The position numbers were made by a program, and so were the translations under genes. The notes beneath the pieces are model-generated. The model worked only from the letters and a program-made list of their open reading frames with translations. It did not search any database and was not told the DNA's origin. Of a stretch of DNA of 64,000 nucleotides, positions 1-60,700 are shown in pieces; position 1 is the stretch's first letter, and each line of letters starts with the position of its first letter. The DNA comes from Amoebophrya sp. A120 (Eukaryota > Protista > Dinoflagellata), in assembly GCA_905178155.1 (NCBI GenBank), contig CAJINV010000005.1:6435207-6499206 (forward strand). Direction: 5' to 3'.

Positions 1-3000
1 TGTGAGCTCTCCCTTGCTTTTCGCTTCTCTTCTTCCGCTAAAGATTGTGCTTCTCGAATCGTCTCTTGGATTCTCCGCTGTTCCAGTTCTTGGTCAAACT
101 GGGGGCCTCGGCCGATCACCAAATCGGACGAAGAGGAGGAGGAGACAACATCATCGGCGGTGTTTTCCTCATGCTCCCTCCATCCTCTGTTCTCATACAG
201 TTCCGGAGACAGAAACTCCATTTTCCCGATCATTTTCTCGACCCGCTTCCCAGCCGCTTCCATCTTCCGCTGCAAGTCCGTGTCGATCTGCGTTAAGACT
301 TTCGGGGATAAATGGTTTTTATCAATGAGGTTCTGAAGATCAAATTCGTTGAACTCCTGTTTTTCTGCTAGTTGTTTTTGGAGAGAAAATTCCTGTTCTT
401 CAATCGTCATTTCCCCGTAGTTGCGAAGAAACTCTGGGTTGTCGATTTCTATTCCGAAGTTTTCCGTTTCTAATTTTTCCAATTCTAATTTCAATTCGTA
501 TTCATCGTAATCTGTCACACCCCCTGGCTTCTGCTCGTCTAAGTAAAATCGCTTCAGTTGTTCTGCTTTTTGGAGTCTTTTTTCTTGGATCACGTTCTGG
601 AAGAAGTCTCTGCGGAGCTGTTTGTCGCGGGTGGGAAAGTCCCAGATGTTGGTATTTTCTTGGTCGGTTGTTGTTTGCGCCTCATTCTCATGGTCCAACA
701 TTTGTTTCAGACCATCGCCGTCGTCGTGTTTTCTTCGCGTTACTTGCGTCTGCTCCATCTCTGCCTTCAACCTCTCCAGCGCTTCCTTGATCCGGCCGGG
801 TGAAGCGATATCCAGCGGGTGGACGGATATGCGTTGCAAATCTGTCTGGGTCTGCAAACTTGTGATGCTGGTTGGCGAATCTTGACGACGCGCCAATTGA
901 TGGCCCAGCATGACAGGTTTCGGAGGTACTAGGTGTTGTAAATTCTGCATGCGAAACTGCGTTTTTGCATGACAGAAAAGTGAGGCTCCTTTTGGATGAC
1001 GTGCATGACAGTTTTGAGAATCATGCTACCCGAGCATCACAAGTCGCGCACTCTCCCGGACCCAGACATATTTGCGATGCATAACGGAAACCACAGATCG
1101 ACTGTCGTTACTGTTGGCGTCGTCCCAGTCCACAGAAGTTTCTTCGTCATAGAAACGCTTTTTCGATTTGAAGTTGTTTTTTATCGTATTGTTCAGCATC
1201 GGTATCTGCGACGCAATGGGGTGCTCGATCCGGTGGAGGGTTGTCGGGTGGAGAGGCTGTCGCTGTAGTTCTTGCTTATTGATACTTTCGTCCTGCTCGG
1301 TGGAATTTGTATTGCGATTTTTCATCCCAAGACCACTGTCGCTGTCGTGCTGGGACAGTTCGTCGTGAACAGATCCATCTTCACCGCCCTCGCCGGCGCC
1401 CAACTCCCGAAAGCTGGATACAACCACAGTTTCGACGAAACTCCTCGCCGCTTTCCGGCCTTCGAACCAATCCAACCGGTCTTGCAGTTCTTTTTGGATT
1501 TCCTCGTTTGCGATGCGGTCGCAGGACGCTTGGAGGACGGAGTGGACGTAGGAGTGGATGATGTGAGCCTGGAGTTGATGATGTTCCGCATGTTCTAGTA
1601 GTTGGTCCTTCTCACCATCTTGTTCATCTTCCGACGGTAAAAATGCTTCCACAATGTCGACTGCAGGAGCTGCACCAGATCCAGAACTACGAGCATGCGT
1701 CTTCATCTTCCCCTGACGTTCTTCAGACATCAACCTGGAAGACGCAGAGGCAGATGAACTCGCACTGTCACTGCTGCTAGAGCTGGAAAATATTGAACCA
1801 CCACCGCCACGCCTCCTCCGCGCAGCACGACTTGCTTTCTCCAAGTTCCGTCTTCCCAGTTCGCGGGCCAACTGGTCCTGGCTCGGCTGCACGATGTCCG
1901 AAGGACGGGCGGTCGGGGACAAGCCAAAAGTAGAAGCGGAAGCTTTTTGTAATGCTGCACCGGCTCTTCTTGCGGGAACACCGGTTCTCCTGTCATGCGC
2001 AATATCCACCCTGACAACCGGCGACTCCAGTCGGTCCTCCAGCTGTAACAGTTCGTCCTCGCCGTCGTAGTTCTTCTCCCTAGTACTGGAAAGATTCCTA
2101 TTCTCGCCATGAGGAAGATTCTTCTCATAATATCTCCCGCTGCTCCCCTGCAGCTCCAAATCGCCAGTCGCCTGGTACAGATTCCACTTCAAATTCTCCG
2201 CCCGCTCCGCCCAATATTTCCTCCACGACTTCAGTCGCTGCTTCATATCCTGTCGAAACTCTTTCGCCCGGTTTTTGAAGAAGTAGTCGTAGATAGTCTC
2301 GCGGAAAAATTTTCGGAAATTTTTGTCCAACTCTTTTCTCACTTCCCTCCCGTATTCTTTTTCGAACCCGAAGGGAGAATTGTCGAAAGAAGGACTGTCG
2401 TGAGTTGTTGTTTCCTCGTTATGTTCAAGGTCTCCGATGGCTTGTTGTTCTACTGTTCCTACTTCACTATCCGCTGTCTTGTTCCGGTTTTTTCCAACTA
2501 CCTTCCCGCTCTTCATTTTCGAACTACCGCCTGCTCTTTTCGTCCTGCAACAAAACCTAATCCTCGGTACACCCAAACAGCAGCAACACCAGCACCCGTA
2601 GCACATCCCGTAAAACACCCCCTTGGCTCGCGCGTCAACGACTCTGGTGTCGAAGTTTTTGTTTTCGACGAAGTACGGTCGCCAACAGAAGTGCTTCAAG
2701 CAGCAGTAGTCGAAACAGGTGGTCAAGTAGTACTCCTTCGGGCGCTTCTCGATCTCCTCCACGGTCCTGAGGATCTTCCGCATGTGCAGGAAGATTAAAC
2801 CGGAGAGTAAAAAGATGGCGAGGAGCGTCATCGGGACAATGACTTTCAAGAAGTGCCATTGGTTGTACCACAGGAATTGGTCACTGGTGTCTTCCGTGTT
2901 TCTCGTATCTAAGTTGTTGGGCGCCGGGTAGAAGTAGAGGGTGATGTTCCCGACTTTCACCTCTCTTCGGAGTATGTGGTTAGACTGCCAGGTAGTGGTG

Positions 3001-3044
3001 GTGGTGGTGGTAGTGGTGGTGTTGAGAGACAGAAGTGCGGACAT
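1..3044 (-). CDS. Hypothetical protein with N-terminal TM helix and Cys-rich patch; 1 non-canonical intron; 3' end runs off window
   Basis: ORF 1026..3044 continues in frame (SRSVVSV|HPLDIASPGRIKEALERL...) after removing 828-1083 plus one ACGGA copy. Confidence 0.8.
828..1083. mobile_element. Introner family A (TIR ~TATCAAATGCAAATATGTCTGGGTCTGGAA)
   Basis: TIRs; DR ACGGA/ACGGA. Confidence 0.9.
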
Positions 3045-6018: not shown

Positions 6019-7579
6019 TTACTTCTTCACCCGTTTGCTCGGTCGGATGGCATATCCACTGCAAACATGTCTGGGTCTGGAAAGATGCCACGAATTTGTG
6101 TTGCTGAGCCTTGCATGACGGAGCGATGCTTCGTACGACATGAACGCATCACAAATTTTTCGGTTGGTATTGCAAGTTCCACCGTGTTTTGCATGACAGA
6201 CAGGCTTCCAGCACGACAAAGACCGTGGTCAACATTCGTATTCATGCATTACAGATCTCGCTGTCTTTCAGAATTGTGCATCACAGATCCAGATCCACAC
6301 ATATTTGCGATGCATATGGGAAACGCGCAGTCATCTTCTCCGTCGTCCATGGTCGAGCTGCTCATGTAGAACATTTCATCCAGACCCGTGGAGGTTCCGC
6401 AATACAAATCGTCATTTCCCCCGTCGTACATGTCGAAATCGTCCGAGACCGAAACCTATGGATATGCAAAAGCATCGCACAAGTTGTATTGCAATACAAA
6501 TTTGCTGGTATAGAGAAAAACTGAGTTTGTCATGCAGGTTCAGGTCACAAACAAGATCTGTCATGCAAAAAATGCAAGTAGTGCGATACTTTTTGCAAAC
6601 GATAACCCCTCCTCATCATCTTCGTCCGACATCTCCTGCAACCCGAGCTGCGTCTGGTCCTCCGAGATTGGCGAAGTGGCGTTTTTGATCGCTAACTTTA
6701 TCGTGTCCTGGGGCTGCATCAACCCGGTCGTAGGATGCTGGGAAGTAGTACTCGGGATTTGGAACTCGTAGAACACGGTCGTTGTGGTGTCATTACTGTG
6801 TTTGCTGGAACAAGACGACTTCAACCCGGAAGATTCGAACCCGATGCCGCCACCGTTGGAGGAACAGGACGAGGACGACACGTTTCCGTCTTCCTCCGAC
6901 ATCGAGAAAACGTTGGTCGAGCACGTGCTGTCGAAATGGCCGTTGTTCATGAAAGTGCACAACTCGTCCCCCTCCCTCTCACTTGTCATGCAAAATTCCA
7001 AATCCACCCTTTGCCTGTTAGCACTGTTTGCGTGACAGATTCCGGAATGATCCAAAACAGCACTACAATCCTCTAGGAATTTGCCATGCTAACGCTGCAT
7101 CTTTGCCAGCGCTTGTGTTGCTGTTCATGCAACACAAATGAGGGGGAGGGGGAGTTGTGCACAACTCTCATATTGTTGTTCCCGTTCATGTTACTACCGC
7201 TCATCTTCGGCATCCAGAGCAAATCGTCTAATTTCTCCAGAATCACCTGCTCCGAAACGACGTGCTGGTACTCGTCTTTCAGCCAGTTGACGATCTCGGA
7301 GACCGTTGTGATGTTGCGCAATTCTTTGTTTGGTTGCAGGGCTTGCGGTGTTGTTGCAGAAGTAGTAGAAAACGCGTTGATACCAGTACTGGCAGAAGTA
7401 GCACCTCCGCTCATCTGCTGCTCGATGATTACGGTAAACGGCTTGAATTGCTTTTTTCCCCAAAGTTGGGGCTGCTTGTTCTGCTGCACCGGGACTGGCA
7501 TCATCACGTACATGCCTGAGGAAGAGGGAGGACCGCCGAGCATCGGCGCCTCACGCTTGTTACTCGACATGGAGAGCAT
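6019..7579 (-). CDS. Hypothetical low-complexity protein ending in basic NLS-like PSKRVKK; 3 introners
   Basis: Four ORF pieces join in frame under the element+5-bp rule (GNN|NGHFDS; EEG|SVSDDF; CAFP|IRPSKRVKK*). Confidence 0.75.
6053..6316. mobile_element. Introner family A
   Basis: TIRs; DR TGGCA/TGGGA. Confidence 0.85.
6457..6604. mobile_element. Introner family B (TIR ~TATGCANTGCAAAAGTATCGYACT)
   Basis: TIRs; degenerate DR AAACC/ACCCC; frame restored. Confidence 0.8.
6948..7172. mobile_element. Introner family C (TIR ~TATGACAGTGCACAACTCCCCCTCCCCCTCA)
   Basis: TIRs; DR TTGTT/TTGTT. Confidence 0.9.
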
Positions 7580-9099: not shown

Positions 9100-10665
9100 T
9101 TATCCTTCCACCGCAAAGTCGTTCATTCCGAGCCACGGGAATTCCGCGTGTGGCTTCTTCTCCTCCACCAAACTCTTTTTCAAGCAGTAGTTGAAACTCC
9201 CGTTCCCCAGCCTCGCATTCTCCCCGACGGGGGCGGAAAACTCCCGCACTTTTCCCCTTCCATCCCGCAAATACCAAATCCCGTCCTTCCCGGTAATTCC
9301 CCCGCATAAAGGCGTGTTCTATTCTGAGTAAAAACGTCCCCACCCTAGAGCTGTCATGCGGTTTTGCCTCTACAGGAATATTTGTAATCCGCATCCCTAT
9401 AAGATGAGGCATGTCTAGTCGACGTGTATAATTCGCATATATTTGTAATGCTGTAAACAGGATAAGCGGATGGGTTTCTGATGCGGCTGTCCTTCGACAA
9501 ACATGCACCACACTACGCACTGAAACTTGTCATGCGTGACTTCCAAAACTTGGAGATTTGTGTTGCAGATGTACCAATCGTTGACTATGGGGTGGGGACG
9601 TTTTATTTGCTCAGGATATGGTCGCGCACAGTTTCTCCGCGTTCGTCCTTTCAATAACCGCACAATCGGACTGCAGGTTGTTATGCATTGCAATTATGTC
9701 TGGGTCTGGAAACTTGTGTTGCTGAAGCTTGCATTGCAGAGTAGCCACATTTACGGCATAACAGCATCAGAAATTTTGCGAGGCTCATTGCATATTCATT
9801 CGTAAAACGCATCACAAATTGGCGTCCAGCACGACAAAAAAGCTGGCCCATCGCATTCATGCATTACAGATCCCTCTGCCCTTCCAAATTCGCATCACAA
9901 ATTCAGAGTCAGACATATTTGCAATGCATAGTTGTGGTTGTTCATGGATTTGCAGTTGTTTTGATCATAGTCCCACTTGAATTGTTTCACCGGACCGCGT
10001 TCCAGATACGCGTTCGCGAAGCACTTGAACAGGCTGGTGTGGTCAGTTGGTGGCGATAAAGGTGGGGAAGTGGCTAGTTCGTTGTCCTCCGGGTCGCCTT
10101 TCGGTGTATTTCCTCCTTCTTCTGGATTGTTCCCGCCCGTTTCTTCTACAGGTTCCTCCACCGGCTGCTCCGGTGGGGGTTCTAGTTCCGTATCCACCGC
10201 TTCCATCTCGGGCTCCCCCGGCCCGAGCTTCTCGTCCTGTCTCGCCTGGATTCCGTCGCACCGACTGCAGTTCGGGCGGGCTTCCGATTCTTTCCCGAGG
10301 CAGTGTTCCAGGCAATCTTCCTCCTGATTCGAGGAAGAGACGAAGACGTCCTTGATGTTCTTCAACAATGCTGCTGGGTTCAGTGCGGCGAAAGAAGTGG
10401 AAGATGAGGCAGTTTTTATGCCAGCTCGATCATGCCGGTGCAGCTTGGTGAAAAATGCAGTCTTTCTGTGGTTGGGCTTTAATACTATTTCCTCGTGGTA
10501 CCAGTCGCGTAGTGTAAGCCCGTGAAGATCCTCGTCGTGGTTAATTGCAGTGCTACTACTGTGGAAAACGTCACTCCAGGGGGACCCTGCTGCAGTTGAA
10601 CCGGATGGGAAAAAGGTCGGGAAAAACCTCGTGGCTAGGTGCTCGGAAATGTTGTTGGCCTTCAT
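9100..10665 (-). CDS. Hypothetical protein with acidic Pro/Glu linker and C-terminal Cys module (PAN/apple-like); 2 introners
   Basis: Spliced C-terminus: NNHN|LQSDCAVIERTNAEKLCAT|TPLCGGITGKDGIWYLRDGR...DFAVEG*. Confidence 0.7.
9320..9618. mobile_element. Introner family E (TIR ~TATCCTGAGTAAAAACGTCCCC)
   Basis: TIRs; DR TGTTC/TGGTC. Confidence 0.85.
9682..9930. mobile_element. Introner family A
   Basis: TIRs; DR GTTGT/GTTGT. Confidence 0.9.
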
Positions 10666-33210: not shown

Positions 33211-33503
33211 GTCTCGGAGGATGCGTTACGTATCCAGGCAGAAAGACTGCGTCAGTGTGCTGTTGAAAGTGAATGCACTTGCACATGCAGCACATGTTGC
33301 ACGACAAAACAGTAATAAAAATGGAAATACCAGATTAAAGTACGTTTGTCATCCTGCCTTCAGGGAGGAACCTTTACGGCCTCCTCGCATGTTGAAAGAG
33401 TGACTTCGAATTGCACCAACTAGCGGCACAGGAGAACTTTTTTCTCTTATCCAGGGTACACTTGTGTTGATACTGTGCGTCCACCCAGGAGGTGGACGAG
33501 CAA

Positions 33504-44693: not shown

Positions 44694-45021
44694 TATCAAA
44701 GTGAAAAAAGCCCCCACCCCATATTCAAAAGACAATTTGCGTTGCTGGATTTGCGTTGCTGGATTTGTGTACACAAATGAGCTCTGTATTGCAGCAAGAG
44801 CATGTCGGCATATTTCCTCAGCCCATTTGGGTACGCATCCGGCTAGCAGCTGAGCATGAGAAACAAGTCTGCCATATGCGAAAACGCATGACAGACTCGC
44901 TGTACAATGCGCCACATGGGTGCCGTTTGCCTTGTACGCAAGACAAAGCTGATTTGCGGTCACAAATCAGCATTACAAATTCTCGTTTCGATATGGGGAA
45001 GGGAGACTTTTCCTCTCAGTA
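44694..45021. mobile_element. Introner family D with degenerate DR, apparently downstream of a stop codon
   Basis: Family D TIRs and interior; flanks CGCTA/CTGCT. Confidence 0.8.
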
Positions 45022-45063
45022 CTGCTGCTCACCACACGAAATGCTCTCGTCGTGCGTCCCTGA

Positions 45064-45438
45064 TTACGAATTTGAGCCCTTATCGCCCGGAGGATTCGCC
45101 TCAGCCGCGCTCTTCGCTGCCGACGTCCCCTCACTCGTCGTGGAGTTTTTGTGTTTTGTGCCGCCGCTCGGACTAGCACTTCTTCCAGCGCCGTTCGTGG
45201 TGGTTTGCGAAAGAACTCTGTTGCTCGAAAGAAAACTTCTACCGAAGGAGTTTGTGGCGGAGCTTCCGGCTTGCCCAGCTTGCAGCTGATATGCCTGGTC
45301 TAGTACTTCTGCGTCTGCCGCCGTCCCTTTAGTACTAGGTGGCAGAGCGTCTTCCAGGCTGCTTCTGCTCGCGCTCAGGTTCGAGTCGCCCTCGTTGTGA
45401 AAGCTGCCGATCTCAGCCAATCTTATGCGAGAAAACAA
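45064..45438 (-). CDS. Short Ser/Thr/Ala-rich ORF without ATG; possible gene fragment or terminal exon
   Basis: 124-aa ORF whose composition resembles neighbouring proteins. Confidence 0.35.
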   Translation of the reverse strand: MFSRIRLAEIGSFHNEGDSNLSASRSSLEDALPPSTKGTAADAEVLDQAYQLQAGQAGSSATNSFGRSFLSSNRVLSQTTTNGAGRSASPSGGTKHKNSTTSEGTSAAKSAAEANPPGDKGSNS

Positions 45439-45647
45439 GGAGATAAACTGCGTTTACTGCGTGTATTGTTTGGTCTTCTTTTGGACGAGGATTTCTATTC
45501 TAGGATTCTTGTTAGTGCGAAAAACTACGTAGACACGTCCATAGTCAGTCGTCTGATGTGACACATGGAGTATTTTTTACAGTTAGCTGTGCAAATCTTT
45601 ATTCGCATCACACATTTCATGTTCGACGTCCATTCAAGAACTACATA

Positions 45648-48600
45648 TTACACAGTTTCCATTTTTCTCGCTTGGATAAACGTTCCCGAAAAATCGTTGA
45701 CGGAATGAAATACGTGGTCCCGGCTCTTCAGCTGTCGTGGCCGCGTATGCAATGCAAAAGCATCGTACTCGTAGTCATTCCGATTATGCATTGCAAATCT
45801 TTTTCCGAAGGTCAATCAGCATTACAAACTCCATTTCTCATGCTAGCTGAGGGCGAAATCATTTGTAATGCAATTCACACTACTAGTACGATGCTTTTGC
45901 AATGCATACCCCGCGGATTGCGACAATTGCGATTTCCACTGTGCGGGCCCACTATTCGGTCCTCCCCCACTGGCGCTGTTCTCCCCTTGGCCGGTTTTCC
46001 GCAGGTCCTGTGGGTCGGACGTGGCGAGGGCGTGGAACAGCCCCGTGGCGGTCCCAGCGCTGGTCTCCGATTTCCTTCGTTGGGGCGTGGAGAGATTAAA
46101 CTTCTCGGCGTCAAGTTGTGCTCCGGTCAGCATCTGTCCATTATCTTTCGCCCCGCCGTAGTTCTTCCGTCCGCGACCACCGTCTAGGGAAAGCGTCTTG
46201 GCGAGCGAGGACAGGGTATCCCAGAGAAAAAAGCTAGCAGGGCATGTTTGTAATGCAAAAACACATACACAGAAAAATTTGTCATGCGCGGCCCCATAGC
46301 ATGCTGTTCAGGATATGCAGCACAGATCTTCCTGTGTATTCATTTTTGCATTTCAAATATGACCTGCCTGCTTTTTTCTGTGTGATACAGGGATCCCTGC
46401 AAGTCGCTGTGCTCCGCGCCACGTCCTCCCGTGCCCGACGTCGAACTGTGGTCTCCCGCTCCTCCCACGCTCGTCCCACTTCCCCCCTGGTGTAGGTTTT
46501 GTGCCGGCGGCGCGCCGCCGTCCTGGGCGCTCGCGAGCGAGCTGCTGGCGGTCTCCTCCCGCAATTTCAGCATTTTCGCGCCCGCAGAACTGGTGGGCGC
46601 CAGCAAGGCTTCGTCCTCTTCTTCCAGACTGGAGGATTGGCCCGTGACAGAGTTTATGCACTGCAAAAGTACTATCGCACTTGTTGTACTAATTACATTT
46701 ATGCATTACAAATCTTTTTCTTAAGGTAAATCTGCATTACAAATTTAATTTGTGATGCTGGGCTGATTTGTGATGCAATTTATACTAGTACGATGCTTTT
46801 GCATTGCATAGAGTTCTTCCGCAGCGCGTTTTGCCGCACGTGCGTATCGCGCAGGTTCGGGCCCCCGTTCTGTTGCTGCTCTACCATCTCTTTCTGGATC
46901 GCCTCCTTCTGCTCTACCTCCGCCTGAATACGCGTTATCAAAATGAAAAATCCCCACTCCCCATGTCAATAAAACGGAAATCTGTGATGCGGGATTTGCG
47001 TACACAAATCAGATCTGTCTTGCAGTAGAGCACTGCACGCAGATGCTAAGCCTGAGCAGGGGTCTTCTGGTGTAGGCACTTGGCACGGCAGACGTCTGCC
47101 CCGTAGGCCTTACAGTATTACAAATCGCCTCTATAACGCGGCGGACTCTCCGGATTTGCATTCTTGCAAGACAGACAGGATCTGTGGCCACAAATCTGCA
47201 TCACAAATTTTCAGAAGGCTGCGTTCTTAATATGGGGAGGGAAGATCTTCCGCTTGAATACGCGTTTCCAGATATTTGTTCTCTAGCACCGTGGTCCGAA
47301 ATGTTTTTTGCACTTTGCTGATCTCGCTCATCTGGTTCTCCACGAGCGACTGGAAGTTTTGCTTCATCGATTCCAAATTTTCACACGCGAGCAGCAATTC
47401 CTTGCGTTGCTTTTCCGCCTCGTCCTCTAACAGAACGGTTGACTCCGTTTGAATGCCGATCGATTGGAACTCCTTCTTGAACACCGCAGCGGCCTCTTGC
47501 TCTTCCCGCTTCTTCCTCTCCTCGGGCGTTTCCTTGTCCTTGTTCAAAAACTTCTCCCGGTTGTAGTTCGTGATGTAGCGAATTCGTGGTAGATAGCGGT
47601 TGATGATCCGTAAATCCTCGAGAAACAAATTCACCCGCTTGATGTGACTGTTCAACCGCTTGACCTCCTTTTCCCGCACGGAGAAAGGACTGAAGCCGCC
47701 GGCTTTACTTTGCCCGCCCCGACTGTTATGCAACAAGCCAGCAGGATCGGCACCCGCGGAAAATCTTCGGTGGTCGGTACCTTGCTTGTCGTTCAGTCGA
47801 AGCTGATGCCTCTGCGCGAGCGACGGCTGCTCGTACTCCAAGCGGCCGGTGCTCGCTAAACTTGGATCGTCGTAGAAGTCGTCGAGCAGTGGGTGGCTAC
47901 CTTTCAGCGACGACACAGCCCCTCCCAACGCTGCGCTGCCCGCGGCTCCGGAGGAGGAACTACTCCCGGTGGTGGAGGAACTCCCGCCGATCCCGGCCCC
48001 GGAAGGAGAGTTGTTGGTGTTGGTCCCCATGTTGCTTTTCGACACGGTGGATAGCACCAGTTTCTCTACCGCCTGCCACTGTGGCACGGAAATTTTCTCG
48101 AACTCGTTTACCACGTTCCAGGTGACGAGATACAGTGCGTGCGGGGAGATGCTCCGGCACTTCACGCACGCGTGTAACGCCGCCTCGATGTAGTCCTCAA
48201 AAAAACACAACTTGAACTGGAAGGACTGATTCTGTTTGCTGTCCGAAATCTGCAGCGAGGAAGAGTTATGCAGCAGCGACGCCGCATTCCCACTCGCGAC
48301 CGCACCAGCACTGAAGCTAGTCGTCGGATATAACCCTTTGTGGTGATGCCCCGCCCCTCCTCCCGCCCCGAAAGCGTGATGCAGGTGCAGCTGCTTTTGG
48401 TGGTAAGCCGTCGAAAGGGCGTTGTACCCCTGGGCGGCACTTTGGACGTAGCCATACGTGCGGTCCAGGTTTTGTACCACGTGAATGTACACGCACTCTA
48501 TCACCTCGGGACACTCGTCGAGCTGAGAGATTTTGTTGTTTCAGACTTGTTTAATCAAACCTGTGATGCATAGAATGTACCACAGAAGTGTTTGTCTTGC

Positions 48601-51600
48601 CGTTTATGTTCCCTATAGGAAATGCACGCATGGCAAGTTTCGCCTATTTCTTTTGACATGTGTAACGCGATCGCGAACTTGTGATGCAGAACCTACTATA
48701 CAGATCTCTATCTTCGTTTCAGAGCCCATGCGCATAGGAATCAAAGTTGTTCTCATCGCTGCACCCCAGCCGCTGCAAAAAATCGCAGCAACTGGCGTGA
48801 GGACAAACTTGTGATGCATAGAATGAATCACAGAAGTGTTTGTCTTGCTAGTACACATGCTAGACACTGGATATCTTCTAGTAGTTGCGAACTTGTGATG
48901 CAAAACGTACTATACAAATCTCTATTGTTTCAGAGCCCATGCGCGTAGGAATCAAAGTTGTTCTCATCGCTACACCCCAGCCGCCGCAAGAAATCGCAGC
49001 AACTGGCGTCAGGACTCAAACCTTTTACTAAATCTTCGGGTCATCATGCGATAATCTTGTTTACACTGTTGTCTGCTCTAGTGTGTCAACTTCTCAAGAG
49101 GATCTTCTTCATGTATCAGCATGTGTACAGTACATGCTTGTTTTTCCTGATCGACATGAATTTTCGGGCGGAACTACCGCGGGCTGGATCTCTATTCTTT
49201 CAAAACGGCATCATATTAAAGTAAGATCTCACTCGAATACCTTCATCGACAAAAAGATGAAAATACAACGCCTGCTCTAAAGACCAAAACTCCTATACCA
49301 TTTTCGTGGCCGTGTAGTAGTCCGCTTGGCCATTGTCGCCGATAAAGATGTATGCATTGCCAAGATGTCTGGGTCGGGAAACTTGTGTTGCTGATACTTG
49401 CATTGCAAACTTGCTGCTTGTACGGCATAGCAGCACGACAAATTATCCTCGGCTTATTTTTGCGGTTCAAGTTTATTCGTGTTTAGCATGACAAGCTGAC
49501 TTCCAGCACGACAAAAAAAATTGTCAATCGTATTCATGCATCACAGACCTTGTTGTCCTTGAGGTCTTGCAATACAAATCCAGACCCAGACATATTTGCA
49601 ATGCATAAGATGAATTTGAATTCCGGGTAGAGCGATTGGTATTCGACAAAGTTCGCAAACTTTTTGTCCCCCAGTGGCCCGTAATCCCCGCTCATGATGA
49701 ACTGCGTCGCTGTCACGATCCCGCCGGGCAGCAGCGCCGGCATGCAGTGCAACCCGTTTTCCATCCGCATCATTTTGGAAAACGAGGAAAACAGCCCCGA
49801 CTCCACGTAGTCCGAGACAATGTGCGGCCGAGCGGAAAAGCCCACCAAATGGCCGAAATTCCCGCCGCAGTCCAGGTTTTCGGTCTGCTTTATCGTGAGG
49901 AAGAATCCCCCCTCCCCATATCAAAGTGGCAATCTGTGTTGCGGGATTTGTGTACACAAATCAGCTTTGTCTTGCAGTATAGAAGTGCAGGCAGATAAAA
50001 AGCCTGGAAGGGGCTGGCTAGAGGTGGGCGCTCAGCATGGCAGACGTCTGCCCTGTTGGTGCAGCAGCATTACAAATCGCCTGCGTAAAGCGGCGAAAGC
50101 TCTGGCTTTGCTCTCTTGCAAGACAGACCTGATTAGTGACCACAAATCAGCATCACAAATTTTCAAAAGGATGCCTTTTCAATATGGGGAGGGGGATTTT
50201 TCCTTTCAATATGCTTCCGTAATTGCTCCGTCGTGCTGTCGTTCTCGTTTTGGTCGCTTTCTGATTCCTCTTCCGAGGAACTCAAGCCGCTGAGCTCCGA
50301 ATCTGACAGCTCGCTGTCGTGGTCGTTTTCCGACGAAAACAGTTCGTCATCCGCCATCGCGTGCTTATCCGATACGGGGCTGCTAGGGGGGGAAATCGGG
50401 ATGTTATCGTCGACAAGAACGGCAGCTGGTGTGCCACTGTCCGGAAGATGAGGACCTAGAAGATGGCCTTCTTGTTGCTCCAAAACTGCTGTTGCGACCG
50501 ACGCAGCACTACTGGCGCTACTGTCTGTTTCCTTCTGCGATAATGAAGATCCTGGCTCTACTGCTTGCGCATTTATTCCGCCCTGTGGCGTTTCCCCTGG
50601 TCGTGTGGTTTTCATCGACACAGGACCGTCTTGCACACCGCTCTCGCCTGCGGAAGACTCTGCGGAGGTCAGGAAGGCAGTGGACTCTGGTGGAAGACTC
50701 TGCTCTCCACCCGCTGACGAGGTCGTGGGTGCCGCCGAAAACATCTCGGTCGGCGGAATGGATTTCAGCTCGTCGTTGTTATCAGACGTAGACTCTTTCG
50801 CGGACAAAAGCGGCTCGTTCTCCGAGGAAAGGTCGACTGCCCCTTGATGTGCGGCCACCCCGGTAGTGGGGTCTTGGTCTGCCAAGGTAGAAGTCGCGCC
50901 TGCTAACAGAGCGGTTGACTTCGTGGGCGAAGATGCGCCGCTCAATATTCCTGCTTCTCGTGTGTTCCCTGCGACTGCTACCGGCTGGTTCAGTTCCTGC
51001 TGGCCGCCTGGTGTTGCAGGTCCGGCAGCTCCCGAAGAAAACGTACTTTCTTGATGTCCATTCTGTGTAGATTGGTTTCCTACGATACTCGGCTCGCCAG
51101 CACCAGAACCGGTCAGATATATATTTGCCGCGGTCAGTGGCTCGCCCACTGCGGCAGTTACTTTCTCAAAACTAGACACTGCCGACGTTGTTGTGAGATT
51201 CAAGTGTGAGCCATCGGACGAAACGCCGGTGTTGATACTGCTACTGGACTATGGATTGCAAATATGTCTGGGTCTGGAAGACGAAGATTCTGAGACTTGT
51301 CATGCACGTTTTGCATGAGCCATGAGGTCTCTGACAATGCGAGACCTAGCATGACAGATTCTTTGAGGTCACTATCATGCCTTTCCTGCATGAGAAACTC
51401 CCTCTGAATTTGGTCAAAAGTGGACAGCCTTTGGTTCTCACGCAACACAAATTTTTACACCATTCAGATTTAGCATGACAAGTCTTGATCTTCCAGACCC
51501 AGACATTTTTACATTTGATATGGACGCGGATGAGACCACGCCGGTGGTGTTGGCAGCCGTCGAGGGTATCATGAGAAAAAAGTGTTACAGTTACACATTT

Positions 51601-54600
51601 GTTGGAGTTTCTGCATCACAAATTTTCTCTGTATAGCAGAGAAAACTTGTAATGCGAAGATCATAAGGGAAAACAGGAAGGAAACGAGGCCCCCAAGCAT
51701 TTCCTGCATGAGAGAGGTTGTCTGTGTTGCCGGTCTTGCATAGACTATGTGTGTAACTGTAACACTTTTTTCTTGCGATAGAGGGGGCGTTGTCCTTACT
51801 GCTATCCTGCTGCTGGCTGCTGCTCTTCTTCAAGTCTGTGATCTGGGTACTATTAACCGCAGTGCCCCCAGCACTCGGCGCTTTATTTCCTTGTTGTAGC
51901 TGTTTGCTCTGAGCACCGGGCAGCTTCGTAACGCCGCCCTTACCCGCCAGTGGCGACCCGCTGCTATTGGAAGAAAAAAACGAGCTGGTAAACTGGGGGT
52001 AATTTTCCCGCCACTTCGAGGTCAGCATGGGTGTGCAGCGGTTGGCCAGGGCCGAGGGACACCGCATCCACCATTTGTCCACCCGGTACTGCTCCACTTC
52101 GGGCGCATCGTAGTGCTCCAGAACGCGGTAAAACGTGGTAACCCCGGGGTAAATCTGTTTCCGCGGGTACCTCTTGTCCACGCCCGCGATGTGGTTGCCG
52201 CCGGAACAGTAGAGCGTATCGTCGATATCGGTCAAGATCTTCAGCCACTGGTGTCTGGCAGAGAGCCCCTGAAAGGTCGGGGACATGTTCAGAAACCCGG
52301 CCAGGTCCAGGTCGGCGCCCAGGTAGTGCTGCGCATCCTCGCCGATGGAAGAGAGAGAGGGGGGTTGGGAAATGAGGGTGCTGTTGTTCGCGGCAGTTGT
52401 TGGCGGTGCTCCAGGTAGTTGTAAACCTCCCGGGTGGCCTTGCATACCACCAGTAGACGAATTGTTCATCATCGGTGGGTTTAACCCGCCTGCGAGCTTT
52501 CTTTTCAGAACACTATCGGTGGAAGAAGATGGTGGTCCCACATTTGTTCCTGTTGCGCTGATAGTGTTGTTCCCGATAGAGGTAGTGGTCCCAATTGTGC
52601 CACTCCCGATTTGGTCGTGCGGCTCCGAGGTGCTACCCGACGTAATGTCGTTGTGTTTCGAGGTTCCGGACGCGTTGTGAATTGTCGACGTTGTGCTCGC
52701 ATCGCTATCCGGTTCCCGATCGTGCAAAAAGGAAGTTGGCCCGCCGGGGGCACCGCCAAGCTGCACCTGCTGGTGGTAGCCAAACTTCATCTTGTTCATG
52801 CCCAGAGTTGTTGTGCTGTTTGGATGTTGGTGGTGGAAGGGGGAACGAAGCTTGTGATTCCCCACAGAGCCAATATAACTTGCTCAGGTGTTACAATCTC
52901 AAGCGTTGCAATAGAATATGGAAATCTGTGATGCAGGAAGTGCATGATCACCGTAGTCCCAGCATCGGTTTGCGCATGACAAGTTGCGGCACCCAGAACC
53001 CCATAAATATCCGGCGAAATTTGTATTGCGAAAGGCGCAACTCTACACACGTTCCTCATGCTCTTCATGTAAGACAAAATCCAGACTCTATTGTAACGTT
53101 TGAGATTGTAACGGTTCAGCAGGTCATAGCCAAAAGCCGGACCATTTTGCTGGTCTGAGGACAGAATCCCGTCCTCCGATGGCGTTCGGGATCTCGTCGG
53201 GGTCTGCATCCGGAAATTAGAGGCACCTCCAGCAGTAGAAGACACTATACCCCCCCGGTTCAGCATGGATTGCGGATTCGTCATTAGCGTGGATTTATCA
53301 AATGCAAAAATGTCTGTGTCTGGAAGAATGCAAGTTTGTCATGCTTGTCTGGCATGACTCGAGAATCTGTTATGTTGCAGAGGCACGAAAAGGCCCTCTT
53401 ACCTGTCACGCAAAGACGCAGTTTGCCATGCGGAATACGTAAGACATGCCAGCCAAAAAATTTGTTATGCATAGCTGCGTAATATTGCAGTACGTCTATC
53501 ATTCACTTTTAGCATTACAAGTTTCCAGACCCAGACATATTTGCATTTGATACGATTGGAATTGCGGTGAAAATTCCTGCAAAGCGTGGTTTGAACTCTC
53601 CTTTTTGTTCAGTAAATACCTCAAATGGAGATCCCGGCCGATCAAGCGGGTGTAAACCTGCAACGTGGCTTATGACAGTGCACAACTCCTCCCTCCCCCT
53701 CATTTGTCATGCAAAAACCCAAATCCAGTTGCTACCTTGTGGCACCGCGTGCATGACAAATTCCGGAAATCCAAACAGTGCTACAGTTGGCGCATGAACT
53801 TGTCGTGCACAGGGTCCACCTGCACTGGTGTTTGTAATGCTGTTGATACCATGCAAATGAGAGGGAGGGGGAGTTGTGCACTGTCATATCGCCTGCTGAA
53901 GTATGTGCTTCTGGACTTGATTCCGTTTCCCGTAGCTCAAGTCGGAAAAAACCAGTTTCCAAAACCCGTGTACCGAGCCTTTGGAATCGGTCATGGATTT
54001 CAAATTCGTCAAGTCGTCTCCCAGTGTGTTCAACACAATCCGGGTGACCGCCTCCTCGGCTTCGGGCGAGCAGGAAAATTTCAAAACCTGCAGTGCGTTG
54101 ATGATGAGAACTCTCGATCTGACCGTCAGTTCGTCGACCGCGTCGAAGCAGAGAAATTTTATCAGCTGCGTCCTGGACCCACCGGTGTTGCTGCCCCTAG
54201 AAGTAGATCCACTCATGGCCGTCTGGTGTTTCTGCCCGAAACTCCCGCTGACCACACTGCTATGTCCAGGATGATGATGAACCCCGACGATGCTTGGCAC
54301 GACGGAATACCGCTTGTTGTTGTTTTCCTTCGCAGTATAGAACCAGGAGAAAATGTTGAAAAAGCTAGGAACAGAGAAGTTCATGCTGGTATCGTCGTGC
54401 AACCGGTCCAACAGAATTATCAAATGCAAATATGTCTGGGTCTGGGAGAGTGTAAACTTGGCATGCAGATTTTTCATGGCCCATGAGGTCTGAAGTGCGG
54501 GACTTAGCATGACAGACTCTGCGAGGTCTCTGCCATGCCTATCCTGCATGAGAAACTCCTCCCCAACTTGGTCGAAAGTGGACAGCTTTTGGCACTCATG

Positions 54601-56442
54601 CAACACAGATTTTTACATGCTTCAGATTTACCATGACAAGTTACCACCTTCCAGACCGAGACATTTTCGCATTTGATAAAAATCTCCAAGTCGCAATTTT
54701 GCACCAAGGCGTTGAAGGTATCCCCCTTTCCCAGTAGCAATTTCTCGTGTTCGTCCACAAAAATCTGCCGGATCTTGTTTTCCTGCTCGCGCTTCTTGTC
54801 CTTTCGGGAAGAGGGGAGAAACGGCGCGATCAGCTTATCAGATAGAAAGAACGACGCGAAGTAGCTCACCTTGCTACTTTTGAAATAGTCCCGCTCGGTC
54901 AATAACCGTTGGATTTCCGCGGTGAGATTTTTCACTTCCTGCGACGGCGTCGCGAGCCGGGTCGACCGGATCGACTGCGCGTGTTTTAACAGGCTGCTTT
55001 CCCGCATGATCGAGGCATAGGAGAAAACGATGATAGGGATCAGGAGCAGCATGAACAGGACAATCGCCGGATGATTCAGCATGGAATCCGAATTAATCGG
55101 CGAGTCCGGCGGCACGAAGAAGGTTACCTGGATTATCCACAATGATGTTCACAATCACAACACTGACTACGCGTGTATCAAAGAGTTTTGGTAGTTTCTT
55201 CCGTTGGGAATGACATGAATGTTCGCTCTATTGCATGACAGAATCAACCTTCAACTGATCATCATGATGTTTCTACTTCAATACTCATACATAGATACCA
55301 GTATTATGTATGCACTGCAAAAGTATCGCACTCGTAGTATTGCAATACAAATTAGCTCAGCATGACAAATGGAATTTGTCATGCTGATATAGCTTGAAAA
55401 AGAAATTTGTAATGCATAACTGCAACTCGTACGAGTACGATACTTTTGCAGTGCATATCATGACGCCGAGTGCAATCTGCGGTCCCTCGTCCAGTGTCGA
55501 CCGAAAGTCCTTCATGGACAGCAACGCCCGTCTTAGAAACCGCAAGAAATGCCGCCGCTTTTTGTTCCGGGAGTCTTCCATCTGCCGCGCTACAATCGCG
55601 ATCGTGGTCTCCTCGGCGAACAGGTAAATTAACCCCATGAGCAACGTCGCGAGTAAGAAACTGGTGAAGAGCGTCATGTAGATAAACCCGAGCGTGATGA
55701 AGATCGAAATGCTCGCGAAGAAACAGAACACGAAAACCCGCACCGCCGACAACGCCCTCGCGGTCCCGTGGTGCTGCCACTTCTGGATGTTCTCCACAGA
55801 ACTCTGCCAGGCCGCCGTGGCGGCGTTGCGGGAGAAGGACGAGGAGGAGGAGGAGTTTTTAGCTGATGATGTTCCCTGATCACTTGTCGTCGACTTCGCC
55901 GAAGCGTGAGACCCTGTGCTCTCCAAAGAATCGCGGATATTGGCATTCTTATTGCCCCCGGTCTTCTTCTTTTTCGACGTTGAGGATTTATTGTTTGCGC
56001 TCTTGCCTGTCGTGGTAGTACGACTTGTAGTTCCCCCGACCGCGCCATCGTGATCGGCGGTTTTAGAAGTGCTCGCCGCGGCGCTATGGTCCTTTGTAGC
56101 TGTTCCTGTTCCAACACCTCCCAGTCCCGCATTCTTGTCCCGGTAGTTGTTCCTCTCCTTATTACTCGACCTGATCCCTGTCCTCTCCTTCGTGGCAGAT
56201 GCAGCGAGCCGCGTCTTCTTCGGGACTAGACCTCCATCCATAATATGCTCGCCGACTGTCCCAGTTGCACCACCTGCTTCGTTGCTCATGCCGGAGCTTC
56301 TAGTTCCACTTGGGTCCGACTGCCGTCGGGTCCGCATATTCACGACCGGCATGGTCATCCCGATACCACCAGGATCGGGACCTCCCGGGCCTCCTCCTGC
56401 GCCCCGGTTGGACGAGGACATTTGTTCAGCAGAAAAGACCAC
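45648..56442 (-). CDS. App1-like (HAD superfamily) phosphatidate phosphatase domain protein with N-terminal TM helices, ~2,250 aa; 13 introners + 2 GT-AG introns
   Basis: Motifs LTDIDDT, FSARP, KFANFVEYQSLYPEFKFI|FIGDNGQAD, VYIH; 10,795 - 4,030 = 6,765 bp = 2,255 codons. Confidence 0.8.
45746..45908. mobile_element. Introner family B
   Basis: TIRs; DR CCGCG/CCCCG. Confidence 0.9.
46217..46387. mobile_element. Introner family F
   Basis: TIRs; DR CAGGG/CAGGG. Confidence 0.9.
46655..46810. mobile_element. Introner family B
   Basis: TIRs; DR GAGTT/GAGTT. Confidence 0.9.
46936..47260. mobile_element. Introner family D
   Basis: TIRs; DR CGCGT/CGCGT, extendable to 18 bp. Confidence 0.9.
48523..49298 (-). 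other. Canonical GT-AG intron (776 bp) containing a ~250-bp tandem duplication
   Basis: ATG|GTATAG...TCTCTCAG|CTC gives GDNGQADYYTATKM|LDECPEVIECVYIH. Confidence 0.75.
49351..49607. mobile_element. Introner family A
   Basis: TIRs; DR AGATG/AGATG; similar to 9682-9930. Confidence 0.92.
49891..50211. mobile_element. Introner family D
   Basis: TIRs; DR TGCTT/TGCTT. Confidence 0.92.
51250..51520. mobile_element. Introner family A
   Basis: TIRs; DR TGGAC/TGGAC. Confidence 0.92.
51567..51780. mobile_element. Introner family G
   Basis: TIRs; DR GAGGG/GAGGG. Confidence 0.92.
52874..53128. mobile_element. Introner family L (long ~45-bp TIR)
   Basis: TIRs; DR GCCAA/GCCAA. Confidence 0.9.
53296..53552. 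mobile_element. Introner family A, inverted near-copy of 22396-22646
   Basis: TIRs; DR GGATT/CGATT. Confidence 0.92.
53671..53888. mobile_element. Introner family C
   Basis: TIRs; DR TGGCT/TCGCC; frame restored. Confidence 0.88.
54418..54678. mobile_element. Introner family A
   Basis: TIRs; DR AGAAT/AAAAT. Confidence 0.9.
55128..55298 (-). other. Probable canonical GT-AG intron (171 bp)
   Basis: CTG|GTATCT...ATCCAG|GTA joins GVMIL|VTFFVPP in frame. Confidence 0.6.
55309..55457. mobile_element. Introner family B
   Basis: TIRs; DR TTATG/TCATG. Confidence 0.9.
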
Positions 56443-57742: not shown

Positions 57743-60700
57743 CTAACTCCTCTTTCCCTGTGGCGACTGCACGGCGAAGAGCCCGCTGCTCTTACTCGTC
57801 CCGTTTCCGCTCGTACTCGCCAAAGCAGAACCTCCGCCAGCTTGCTGCTCTTTCAGCAACAGATTCTTGTTTTTCTTGCGGGTTTTCCGCTCGCGGCTGG
57901 GGAGCGGTATCACAAAGTCAGAAAGTGGTGTCTGGCTGTCTTGTATTATATACTGCATGACAACTTTCCTCAGCATGAGAAATGGAATTTGCAATGCCGA
58001 TTTACCTCGAGAAAGAAATTTGTAGTGCATGACTCCGATTACACCCTTTTTTCTCTTGATACGCTCCACGAAGTCTTGGTCCATATTCGACTGCAGGAAA
58101 TCCATCATCTGATGTAGTTTTGATGTTTTTTTCACATTCGCATTCATTTCCGCATGACAGAGTGCGGTGAGTATGCCTCCCACGCATGACAAAATCCCAC
58201 AAAACGCGACAACTTCGTCTTCGTCATTGCTCATGAACGATGCGCATGACAAACAGCATCGCGCGCAATAGTTTTGAGCCATTTCGGGCCGCCGACCGGT
58301 GAGCAGACAGGAGTCGGTGGCCTGGCTCTGCTGCGGGCGCACGGGCGAACCGCGTACCAACGGCAGCAGACCAAGGCTGCCAAGCCTGCGCTGCACCTGA
58401 CTTCTCAAGGCAACGCCCGGTCTACTATACGAAAACATCGACCGCCCTAGGTCGCCAGAATAGGGGTCGCTAAAAACACAAATTCGGGCAAATCCCAGAA
58501 GCAACAACTTCTGTACTACCCAAGGTCGACATGCATGAGCCTTTGACTACCTAAGTAACCCGTAGGCGAAATAGTTTTTAGCCGTTTCGGGCCCCCGGCC
58601 GGCCAGGAGGGATGGGAGTCGCCGTGGAACAGCGCCTTCACATTCATTCCCGCATGACAAAGTGCCGTGAGTATGCCTCTCACGCATGACAAAATCCCCG
58701 TCTTCGTCATTGCTCATGCACGATGCGCATGACAAACAAAACCCACGCCAATAGTTTTTAGCCGTTTCGGGCCCCCGGCCGGCCAGGAGGGATGGGAGTC
58801 GCCATGGAACAGCGCCTGCGACGCGAGCACTGCTTGCGCCCCGGCCTAAGATAAAGATCAGCGCGAATCCCGGGTAGCCAGAATAGGGCTCGCTAAACAC
58901 TGCATTCGGGGAAAAATGTTGGAACCATGTCCGACCACAACACAACTTTGTCATGCAACTACACACTGAAAAAACATGTTATTTTCATCATGACTAGCCA
59001 AAAATGAAAAATCCTGATTTTAATACGTCTTGCTCGTTTCGGATGTGCGATTGGGGCTGCTGCGCCGCTACGGCAGGTGTCCTCATTGTTGGATTCTGCA
59101 TTATATTCTGTTCCGCCAGACCTCCGCCTTGGACGGCTGCGAACCTGTTCTCCGTGGCCCTCGAAGTAGTTCCAGTAGTTGCACTATCTCCTGCAGGTCG
59201 TGGTGGTCCACCTCCACGCTGCGCGGCAAATTGTTCTTCGGTATTGCTGCTATTATCGCCATAATTTGCATTCCCATCTTCAAACGAAGACGACAGCGTC
59301 GCCGGATCCTGATCGGTCTCCACCCCGACCAGATCTCCCTCCATTTCTCCGAAGGTAGTGTTACTGTGACCACCGGGAAACAGCTCGATAAATCCGTTGT
59401 CGTTCATAACCGCTGGGTATGACAGTGCACTACAACTCCCCCTCGCCCTCATTTGTAATGCAAGATCCGAAATCCAGTTGCTGCCTTGTAGCACTCTTTG
59501 CATGACAAATTCTGGAAGCCCAAACAGTATTACAGTCGGAGCGTGATTTTGTCATGCTCAGTCTGCACGTATCTTGGTGTTTGTATTGCTGTTCATGACA
59601 AACAAATGAGGGGAGGGGGAGTTGTGCAATCTCGTACTGGGAACACATTACTCTCCCCGGTGAAGTTGTCCTCCTCCCCCGGTCCGACTCCGATCACTTC
59701 CGACTCCAATAAATTCGCGCTTGCATTAATCGCCTCGTGCCGTTCGTCCTGCGACCGAACCGAGATCGCTGTGCCGGCCCGGCTGGTGGAGAAGGGAATG
59801 TTGGAAAACAATCCGTTGTAACTCCCATTCACATAATTCGAGTTTGTCCAATTGGAATACTGTGTGGACGAAGGGCTGTTGCTCGACGTCCACATCCGGG
59901 CCTGTTTCCGTTATCCTGGGTAAAAACGTACCCACGACACCGTAGCTGTCATGCAAATCTGCATGCTCAGAATGTTTCTCATGCGGAGCCGCATGAGGAG
60001 CGTTTTCTAGTCGTTTTTCGGAATTTGTTATGCTTCGGCCAGGATCAATAAGCTAGGGCTGTGACGCTGCTGAACTAGCTTAACAGGACTACACCACGAA
60101 GCCAAACTTGTCATGCGCAACAGCCAAAGCTTGCTGATTTGTCTTGCAGATTTCCCAACCTGACTATGGTTGCAGTGGGGACGTTTTTACATATGATATC
60201 CGTTTCCAAATGTTCTGCTCCGACTCCGACATCAAGTCTGGGTTCACCTGCTTCACCGGACTCTGCCGCTCTTGTAGCTGTATCGCGGAAATCTGCACCA
60301 GGGATTTCTTCTTTTTCTTTTTCGGCGACTGGTTGTGCTGTTCCTGCAGTTGTATGAATTGCAAAAGTATCGCAGTAGTAGTAAAATTGCATTACAAATT
60401 TTACCTCAGCATGATGACAAATGGAATTTGTCATGCTGTTTTACCTTGGGATGGAGATTTGTAATGCATATATTGCAATTATTACAAGTACGATACTTTT
60501 GGTGCACTGGATAAGTTGCAGCTTCTGCAGCGCGTTCAACGCCTGTTGCTCCGTGATCGGGACGCTGTTCGGGTCGTTGTACGCGTGGCTCGAATTCGTG
60601 TTTGTCGTTCTCGGCGAGTACCGATGATCCCTGGTGTTTTGATTTTGTTCCTGCTGTCTCTGCAACGTCGTTATCCCCGCCTGTTGCACGATCGGCGGGA

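Follow-up and report, generated by a model that had tools for sequence, protein, structure and literature searches.

The closest described counterparts of the elements analysed here are the introners of Amoebophrya sp. A120, which Farhat et al. (2021; PMC7789003, as far as the text, section 11, legends and Table S4 go) report as 29,850 copies in 1,954 families, about 240 nucleotides (nt) long, able to form hairpins and bounded both by repeats that read TAT, seven variable bases and at least three A and by direct repeats (DRs) of 3-5 nt. Their junctions are RNA-supported and non-canonical; the mechanism of removal is given as unknown and, in the Conclusions, as one that "should be distinct". 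It has stayed open since 2021 in part because the repeats hide the cut. Here we examine 56 elements in a 64,000-nt window of A120 (contig CAJINV010000005.1, positions 6,435,207 to 6,499,206 of the forward strand). We find that they are retained in DNA and removed at the RNA level, each with exactly 5 extra nt, and that the cut quite probably falls, as a general rule, 1 nt upstream of TAT and 4 nt downstream of ATA. To the joint reading, that of this mapped cut together with removal by a loosened U2-type spliceosome, we assign a probability of about 0.5.

Two systems in other organisms invite comparison. The nonconventional introns of Euglena, in the available passages of PMC12501133 and PMC11282704, likewise resemble miniature inverted-repeat transposable elements (MITEs), with an end-joining stem, three conserved closing pairs, a short 5' and a longer 3' overhang, and no GT/AG. 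In Euglena the ends are CAG/CUG, the offsets are 3 and 5-6, and the cut is followed by a purine; in A120 the ends are UAU/AUA, the offsets 1 and 4, and purines are not favoured at that place. The Euglena introns are excised as circles (PMC12501133), whereas the A120 elements are known from contigs only. Fritillaria borealis shares with A120 genome-scale transposon introns with terminal inverted repeats (TIRs) and target-site duplications (TSDs), there removed by a changed U2 spliceosome (available parts of PMC13326754; PMC11282704, section 6). It keeps AG-AC or AG-AT ends and U1; in A120, by contrast, the terminal bases are uniform apart from U+2, and U1 has not been detected.

It is virtually certain that the window carries the published A120 class itself, an identity where the original prediction had drawn a link to introners. 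Three exon queries each returned one protein, at 100% identity and named Amoebophrya sp. A120 (P0004, P0005 and P0006), and the pooled end consensus of the elements, TAT, 7 nt and AAA, is that of section 11 of PMC7789003. Strain, TAT and A-run ends, DRs within 3-5 nt (with a 5-bp example in the legend of Fig. S19), repeated families and RNA-level removal without GT-AG all recur here, and the element class as such is known from the published genome. What differs is that PMC7789003 gives borders as variable or unknown (Fig. 3 legend) and DR length as varying, whereas we find one DR length, one cut, a common motif and both orientations. Gozashti et al. (2025; PMC12130899) recognise 58 A120 families, for the most part TIR DNA elements in the same size range, to which they ascribe diverse origins and for which the calls of TSD and splice site vary; the 38 of these 58 rows at hand hold no cross-family rule. 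The 1/4 register, the common motif and orientation-blind removal were found neither by literature searches nor in the text of Farhat et al. (figures 3, 4 and S19-S25 aside) nor in the available part of Gozashti et al.

In a strict scan for TAT...ATA pairs (arm match of at least 11/15, DR of at least 4/5), the window gave 36 and 5 Markov controls gave 0-1 each. With relaxed scans, BLAST comparisons of the copies and the RNA data, the set grew to 56 elements, which span 828-60513, occupy 24% of the window and measure 138-1366 nt (median 258). Their ends are exactly TAT...ATA in 50/56 and depart by a single base in 6/56; over 110 ends the first three positions count T 109, A 109 and T 106, and positions 11-13 count A 89, 100 and 95, the A run being absent from families F3 and F10 and some singles. 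The 5-base-pair (bp) DRs are perfect in 34 elements, carry one mismatch in 17, two in 3 and three in 1 (57908), and are out of register by one base in 1 (44694). Grouping of 55 elements gave 10 families of 2-19 members and 6 singles, with 57908 as a seventh single. Sliding the junction to GT/GC-AG is possible in only 2/55 elements (20429 as GC-AG, 45424 as GT-AG). In the DNA run described below, 87-178 contigs leave single element ends, which points to many dispersed copies elsewhere. Measured against these counts, the original prediction fares well in substance: the single end rule across families, the transposon origin (TIRs, fixed-length direct repeats, dispersed families) and the lack of GT/AG at junctions all hold, as do its 34 perfect DRs. 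Its total of 53 elements, its 18 DRs with 1-2 mismatches and its roughly 12 families have to be replaced by the figures above; of the DRs it cited, AACAA (6948) and ACAAC (9682) are perfect, and TCCCA (6053) comes from a pair that does not match fully. Two candidates, 17007-17182 and 37156-37489, were discarded as chance together with some 40 weak hits of the scan, controls having given 19-41.

For the comparison of DNA with RNA, read and contig coverage was limited to 39700-59699, and the junctions were deduced from where the pieces begin and end and from depth bins (the joint rows are 15 of 2216, mostly from other element copies). In a DNA-like run, X1, all 8 listed pieces cross element-exon borders with 0 differences, and two of them span whole elements (45424 and 57908). 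Record 11 of run X3, a contig of 7840 nt, has five listed pieces separated by gaps of 325, 41, 276 and 452 nt. These gaps are what should remain after loss of nine elements, 5 nt with each, and two GT-AG introns (48523-49298 and 55128-55298), and all 5 predicted record positions match. Lacking the GT-AG introns, record 11 is spliced complementary DNA (cDNA). Its predicted start, 44292, reproduces the depth bins (30.09 for 30.1 and 31.49 for 31.5), which adds six more elements, one in the 3' untranslated region (UTR), to give 15 in total; at 44694, depth does not distinguish 333 from 334 nt. Two more elements are lost at the ends of records 10 and 12. The annotated proteins agree, with two elements missing from P0004, two from P0005 and twelve from P0006 (16 in total), the last being identical to the 12-element removal model at 281/281 residues. 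RNA or annotation thus supports removal of 32/56 elements, as had been claimed, with one repeat's worth of sequence.

The host open reading frames (ORFs) all lie on the minus strand, and 54/55 elements fall inside long ones. Taking out each element plus 5 nt restores ORFs of 2658 amino acids (aa; 6 elements), 1602 aa (12) and 285 aa (12), and further ORFs of 2364 aa (14 elements and two GT-AG introns) and 1498 aa (4 elements and one GT-AG intron). Compared with 3, 4, 6 or 7 additional nt, 5 gives the longest ORF at 47/55 elements; the 8 misses lie near ORF ends, in the pair 33231/33545 with its shared DR, or in the 3' UTR (44694). With no removal, an ORF of at least 20 aa across the element is gone in 49/55. 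The proposal that removing element plus 5 bp restores the frame is therefore upheld; frame alone is blind to 5 versus 2 or 8 nt, and it is the RNA contig that fixes 5.

Some further observations concern the transcript data. The raw RNA runs X9 and X10 yielded 196 and 3 reads, all partial and none over exons. At 51437-51521, X9 contributes about 175 reads from another sample that carry an F1 end with foreign flanks at 90-95% identity, and judged by their sequence these would come from a copy elsewhere in the genome that is unspliced or retained. RNA record 10 starts at 43885-43886 with AG and 4 unaligned bases, which would fit a trans-splice acceptor. The public model of P0005 omits about 53 nt at about 30478-30530 with a change of frame that the 1602-aa ORF does not need, probably an artefact of the gene model.

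Where exactly does the cut fall? Unequal repeats reveal which DR copy persists at each position. A leftmost-joint model reproduces 10/10 piece boundaries. At 53671, 54418 and 55309 the RNA has the upstream copy through position 4, placing the cut after position 4 or 5; at 57908, where the repeats match at 2/5 positions, the piece includes a single base of the downstream copy before it ends, placing the cut after 2, 3 or 4. A cut after position 4 is the sole value that fits all four junctions, so that the intron reads N-TAT...ATA-NNNN. The offsets, 1 and 4, add up to the length of the duplication, hence removal is scarless. In the annotation, positions 1-3 follow the upstream copy in P0004 and P0006, and P0005 has a downstream-copy residue at 29618, as predicted beforehand. 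Among the seven position-5 mismatches six are without an RNA call, 53296 being covered with its junction not among the listed rows. That 57908 is removed despite a 2/5 DR, the RNA contig leaving it at the expected place, suggests measurement from the ends, the repeat doing no more than making the result scarless; the DR, next to which the original prediction placed the recognised stem, looks like a by-product and not like a recognised signal. In the mapped register the terminal bases of the intron are GT in 13/56 and AG in 3/56, +1 and -1 do not covary (p 0.26), and the first exon base is A in 18, C in 15, T in 14 and G in 9 (purine 27/56).

Two further lines of argument were set aside. The published splice-site tables (Table S4 of PMC7789003, in which the A120 motifs are all NT-, and the gt/at and ag/ac counts in the rows at hand of PMC12130899) were rejected as support for A120: high AG/AC beside high GT/AT counts suggests aligner placement, and A occupies repeat position 3 in only 9/55 elements here. 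Upstream G at position-5 mismatches (4/7 versus 0/7) might be taken as selection towards GT, but the skew is general, with G upstream in 14 and downstream in 3 unequal repeats over all positions (p 0.013, post hoc).

As to what makes the cut, we lean slightly towards spliceosomal catalysis. One transposase acting on GCAWNACA sites would have inserted the elements either way round, duplicating 5 bp of the target each time. DNA keeps the elements; the RNA contig without GT-AG introns is also without elements, 5 extra nt gone with each, and in the mRNA the first four repeat positions come from the upstream copy and the fifth from the downstream one, at the four junctions and presumably in general. 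The ends, not the repeat, would be the recognised signal: NUAU would be read as a 5' splice site in which G+1 is relaxed and U+2/A+3 are kept, and the terminal stem or an end-bound protein would fix the distance of the 3' cut past AUA, AG not being needed. The ends are palindromic and so present identical signals on both strands. Compared with U2-type introns, G at +1 is found in 13/56 elements and AG in 3/56, whereas U+2 and a purine (A/G) at +3 are each present in 55/55 in this register; the four position-3 mismatches (+4 variants) are all on the 5' arm. All three ordinary GT-AG introns in the window, each RNA-backed, begin GTAT, which makes up 4.7% of GT on that strand. This shared U+2/A+3 register, with TAT at the normal donor positions +2 to +4, weakens the original prediction's argument for a pathway other than the U2 spliceosome, which cannot be regarded as established. 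In the related strain A25, introns are tabulated with a TT start and a repeat TTA-R-R, again U+2 and A+3 (PMC7789003, section 11 and Table S4), although that TT- pattern may share the aligner bias. U1 small nuclear RNA is undetected in A25 and A120 and found in an Amoebophrya that has GT-AG introns only (available part of PMC12005148). Fritillaria, moreover, is a case of a U2 spliceosome that has adapted to TIR/TSD introns (PMC13326754; PMC11282704, section 6).

A good deal weighs against this picture. In the mapped register, bases +1, -2 and -1 are unconstrained, which by established splicing chemistry is a large loss for a spliceosome. A branch-point consensus was not seen around the invariant A -7 and T -6, which have no YTNAY around them (the interior was not searched further). 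Of the three GTAT introns, two contain element motifs and are possibly not independent of the elements. Stem positions 1-2 pair in 55/55, and both variants are G.U in the transcribed strand, which favours a structure-based reading. F1 is oriented 17:2 relative to transcription (p 0.0007), a bias that symmetric ends do not explain. The position-5 call comes from one RNA junction (57908, left side only listed) and one annotated residue, and that residue, at 29618 in P0005, whose 5' end is doubtful, equally fits an AG-ending placement. All the RNA evidence comes from cDNA contigs of a single sample, the RNA label of runs X3-X5 being a guess, and the public model of P0004 runs into element 6053-6316 and stops there, the element being either retained in RNA or missed by annotation. 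No transposase was seen in the window, nor did Farhat et al. find one in A120 according to the available text of PMC7789003. The changed spliceosome of Fritillaria, finally, has kept its AG-AC/AG-AT ends (PMC13326754; PMC11282704, available parts).

On a rival view, that of the original prediction, a separate, non-spliceosomal machine, be it a stem-measuring endonuclease with a ligase or another ribonucleoprotein, would read the UAU/AUA-closed stem and make the same cut, much as has been proposed for Euglena, an explanation that we consider possible but doubtful. It would accommodate the free bases at +1, -2 and -1 and the invariant pairing of positions 1-2 with G.U variants in the transcribed sense. 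It would also suit the removal of F1 and F2 in both orientations within one contig (F1, 53296 versus 51250 and 54418; F2, 45746 and 46655 versus 55309) and the exons of 5, 7 and 11 nt and of zero length between abutting elements. The same stagger is found in the Euglena code, N3-CDG...CHG-N5-6|R, where excision yields circles (PMC12501133, available part). Against such a machine, U+2/A+3 fall in the register of a normal donor, both in A120 and, going by the table of PMC7789003, in A25, whose transposon ends differ. The stem, too, is incomplete: terminal pairs 1-3 are predicted (p > 0.5) in only 44/54 elements, with pairs 9-13 in 43/54; they are weak in the RNA-backed 46936 (0.09), 46217 (0.17) and 44694 (0.16); and stem positions 4-8 pair in only 34-42/55. 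The closed stem that had been proposed as the common signal is not predicted in every element, which fits neither the spliceosome nor the separate machine cleanly.

Could there be one machine with a variable crossover within the repeat, such as homology-guided joining, the four junctions agreeing by chance? Informative junctions are few (4 from RNA, 5 from annotation), contigs conceal minor forms, and the junctions tabulated in the literature give a mixed picture (PMC7789003 Table S4; PMC12130899, rows at hand). Three junctions each exclude values 0-3, however, and one excludes 0, 1 and 5, and repeats matching at 2/5 or 3/5, poor guides for homology, are removed all the same, which makes this improbable. 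Programmed DNA excision in a life stage outside the DNA run, RNA then being made from excised templates as with the internal eliminated sequences (IESs) of ciliates, would account for transposon-derived ends, precise loss of one repeat and indifference to orientation. IESs are absent from somatic DNA, whereas the 8/8 listed DNA pieces (one DNA sample) are colinear with the window and retain element borders, and a single nucleus has to transmit the elements; we rate this very unlikely, although a rare joined DNA form may have escaped the 15 of 2216 joint rows listed. Least credible of all is template switching by reverse transcriptase, with the elements kept in the real mRNA. All the RNA data are cDNA, and a hairpin with a direct repeat is a known setting for this artefact, yet retention would kill the ORF across 49/55 elements, a 281-aa gene requires 12 removals, and elements with 2/5 and 3/5 repeats or weak stems are lost as well. 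Among these readings, the loosened spliceosome remains the one that we favour. A fixed register makes the matter directly testable, through the lariat start, the base contacted by U6 and U5, and blocking mutations. If the spliceosome is responsible, it works without need for G+1, AG or a detected U1. If a separate machine is responsible, there would be a second nuclear splicing machine that handles tens of thousands of introns, blind to orientation and repeat and convergent with the unknown machine of Euglena, and that renders a whole transposon lineage harmless in exons.

Several features of individual elements bear on their structure. Elements 33231 and 33545 (33231-33774) abut with one 5-bp repeat in common, and the resulting zero-length exon implies recursive or one-piece removal. 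Among the 19 copies of F1, ends of a few types (TATCAAAT, TATGCATT, TATGGATT) are mixed, which breaks pairs 4-8. The exon flank at 46915-46935 copies at least the last 11 bases of an element end plus the repeat, as if part of the end had been duplicated. The repeats of the old single element 45424-45678 have diverged in a way that allows its junction to be read as GT-AG, and it may have been converted to a canonical intron.

The families had been thought unrelated, a view that their interiors contradict. Counting both strands, the elements hold 205 copies of GCAWNACA (13.2 per kb), with at least one in 55/56 of them; 200 shuffles gave a mean of 3.6 and a maximum of 8, and densities outside elements are 0.58 per kb in coding exons and 0.34 per kb in spacers. 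Successive sites are 31-33 nt apart in 44/107 cases, that is three helical turns, which suggests binding sites of one transposase; the sites are likely its DNA-binding sites, and the elements likely non-autonomous DNA transposons of one lineage. They resemble MITEs with subterminal transposase sites in having TIRs, a fixed TSD, no evident coding capacity and many dispersed copies; unlike MITEs generally, they sit in exons (55/56 within gene spans) and are spliced out. Both orientations are present in 6/10 families. In the light of the motif, the roughly 2,000 families on record may all belong to one transposon lineage, and the motif offers a handle for finding the transposase.

Two nested inserts (35074-36118 and 39972-40723) have TG...CA ends, TIRs matching at 11/15 and 4-bp TSDs, and occur inside elements only, none in exons; we take them to be Ginger-like. 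The former holds a 274-aa minus-strand ORF (35043-35864) with no Pfam match. Ginger elements have TG...CA termini and 4-bp TSDs, which in the window are confined to these two inserts, the introners themselves having TAT...ATA and 5 bp; Ginger elements also have an integrase-like transposase, and the window holds no autonomous copy. Family 38 of Gozashti et al. is entered as "Ginger, 5-bp TSD, TA/TA termini", with Copia/Gypsy-like ORFs and without Ginger termini or TSDs (PMC12130899, rows at hand), and is a candidate source of the cognate transposase.

Coordinates of all elements, nested inserts and GT-AG introns in the window are given in the table.

Table. Elements, nested inserts and GT-AG introns, with family, repeat state and support for removal.
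Feature	Position	Strand	Description	Support
element	828..1083	-	F1, DR perfect	ORF only
element	6053..6316	-	F5, DR 4/5	ORF only; annotated P0004 runs into element
element	6457..6604	-	F2, DR 3/5	missing from P0004; upstream copy at DR position 3
element	6948..7172	-	F3, DR perfect, 3' end ATG	missing from P0004
element	9320..9618	-	F4, DR 4/5	ORF only
element	9682..9930	-	F5, DR perfect	ORF only
element	15480..15701	-	F3, DR perfect	ORF only
element	20122..20382	-	F1, DR 4/5	ORF only, 2658-aa ORF over 6 elements
element	20429..20690	-	F1, DR perfect, GC-AG slide possible	ORF only
element	22396..22646	-	F1, DR perfect	ORF only
element	23802..24066	-	F1, DR perfect	ORF only
element	24808..25122	-	single, DR perfect	ORF only
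element	25518..25775	-	F1, DR 4/5	ORF only
element	28702..28953	-	F1, DR perfect	missing from P0005
element	29618..29791	-	F7, DR 4/5 (mismatch position 5)	missing from P0005; downstream-copy residue
element	31007..31261	-	F1, DR perfect	ORF only
element	31423..31703	-	F4, DR perfect	ORF only
element	33231..33539	-	single, DR 4/5 shared with 33545, weak TIR, without internal motif	ORF only
element	33545..33774	-	single, DR perfect, adjoins 33231	ORF only
element	33816..33966	-	F2, DR 4/5	ORF only; in frame if retained too
element	34066..34328	-	F1 minority orientation, DR perfect	ORF only
element	34378..34694	-	F8, DR perfect	ORF only
element	34842..36207	-	F8 reversed, DR perfect, 5' end TAA, contains nested insert	ORF only
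nested insert	35074..36118	.	TG...CA ends, 4-bp TSD	within 34842-36207
element	36295..36563	-	F1, DR perfect	ORF only
element	36935..37091	-	F2, DR 4/5	ORF only
element	38777..39003	-	single, DR perfect	missing from P0006
element	39135..39400	-	F1, DR perfect	missing from P0006
element	39450..39712	-	F1, DR 4/5	missing from P0006
element	39765..40786	-	F1, DR perfect, 5' end TGT, contains nested insert	missing from P0006
nested insert	39972..40723	.	TG...CA ends, 4-bp TSD	within 39765-40786
element	40856..41073	-	F9, DR perfect	missing from P0006
element	41153..41439	-	F1, DR 4/5, 5' end TAC	missing from P0006; upstream copy at position 2
element	41501..41775	-	F1, DR 4/5, adjoins 7-nt exon	missing from P0006; upstream copy at position 1
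element	41788..42108	-	F6 reversed, DR perfect	missing from P0006
element	42166..42456	-	F4 reversed, DR perfect	missing from P0006
element	42514..42807	-	F10, DR 4/5	missing from P0006; upstream copy at position 2
element	42824..42961	-	F2, DR 4/5	missing from P0006
element	43030..43290	-	F1, DR perfect	missing from P0006; RNA record 10 stops at 43291
element	44694..45021	-	single, 3' UTR, DR out of register, 5' end TAC	removal inferred, depth sum RNA record 11
element	45424..45678	-	single, DR 3/5, GT-AG slide possible	RNA depth 31.5 vs 31.49 predicted; DNA contig spans
element	45746..45908	-	F2 (opposite to 55309), DR 4/5	RNA depth sum
element	46217..46387	-	F7, DR perfect	RNA depth sum
element	46655..46810	-	F2 (opposite to 55309), DR perfect	RNA depth sum
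element	46936..47260	-	F6, DR perfect	RNA piece starts 47255 as predicted; depth sum
GT-AG intron, GTAT start	48523..49298	-	arrays of element motif	exact 776-nt skip, RNA record 11
element	49351..49607	-	F5, DR perfect	exact gap, RNA record 11
element	49891..50211	-	F6, DR perfect	exact gap, RNA record 11
element	51250..51520	-	F1, DR perfect	exact gap, RNA record 11
element	51567..51780	-	F9, DR perfect	exact gap, RNA record 11
element	52874..53128	-	F10 reversed, DR perfect	exact gap, RNA record 11
element	53296..53552	-	F1 minority orientation, DR 4/5	exact gap sum, RNA record 11
element	53671..53888	-	F3, DR 3/5, informative junction	RNA: upstream copy through position 4
element	54418..54678	-	F1, DR 4/5, informative junction	RNA: upstream copy through position 4
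GT-AG intron, GTAT start	55128..55298	-		exact 171-nt skip, RNA record 11
element	55309..55457	-	F2, DR 4/5, informative junction, adjoins 5-nt exon	RNA: upstream copy through position 4
element	57908..58061	-	single, DR 2/5, informative junction	RNA record 12 ends 57903: position 5 from downstream copy; DNA contig spans
GT-AG intron, GTAT start	58109..59026	-	arrays of element motif	donor: depth 0.27 vs 0.271 predicted; acceptor inferred from frame
element	59418..59636	-	F3, DR perfect, 5' end TAC	ORF only
element	59912..60198	-	F4, DR perfect	ORF only
element	60353..60513	-	F2, DR perfect	ORF only

The three ordinary GT-AG introns, like the common internal motif, had been missed by the original prediction. 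Two of them, 48523-49298 and 58109-59026, contain internal duplications and the element motif in arrays spaced by 31-32 nt, without TAT...ATA ends, and may be decayed elements within introns or elements turned canonical.

Pfam searches with 35 exons and ORFs returned only G-patch, C2 and sub-threshold matches and no transposase, a homolog search against proteins of 705-2010 aa gave no match, and each query with an interrupted gene returned one self match and no homolog from another species, leaving no empty site for comparison. At 3652-5103 lies an intronless G-patch/GPKOW-like gene without elements, presumably a member of a splicing-factor family.

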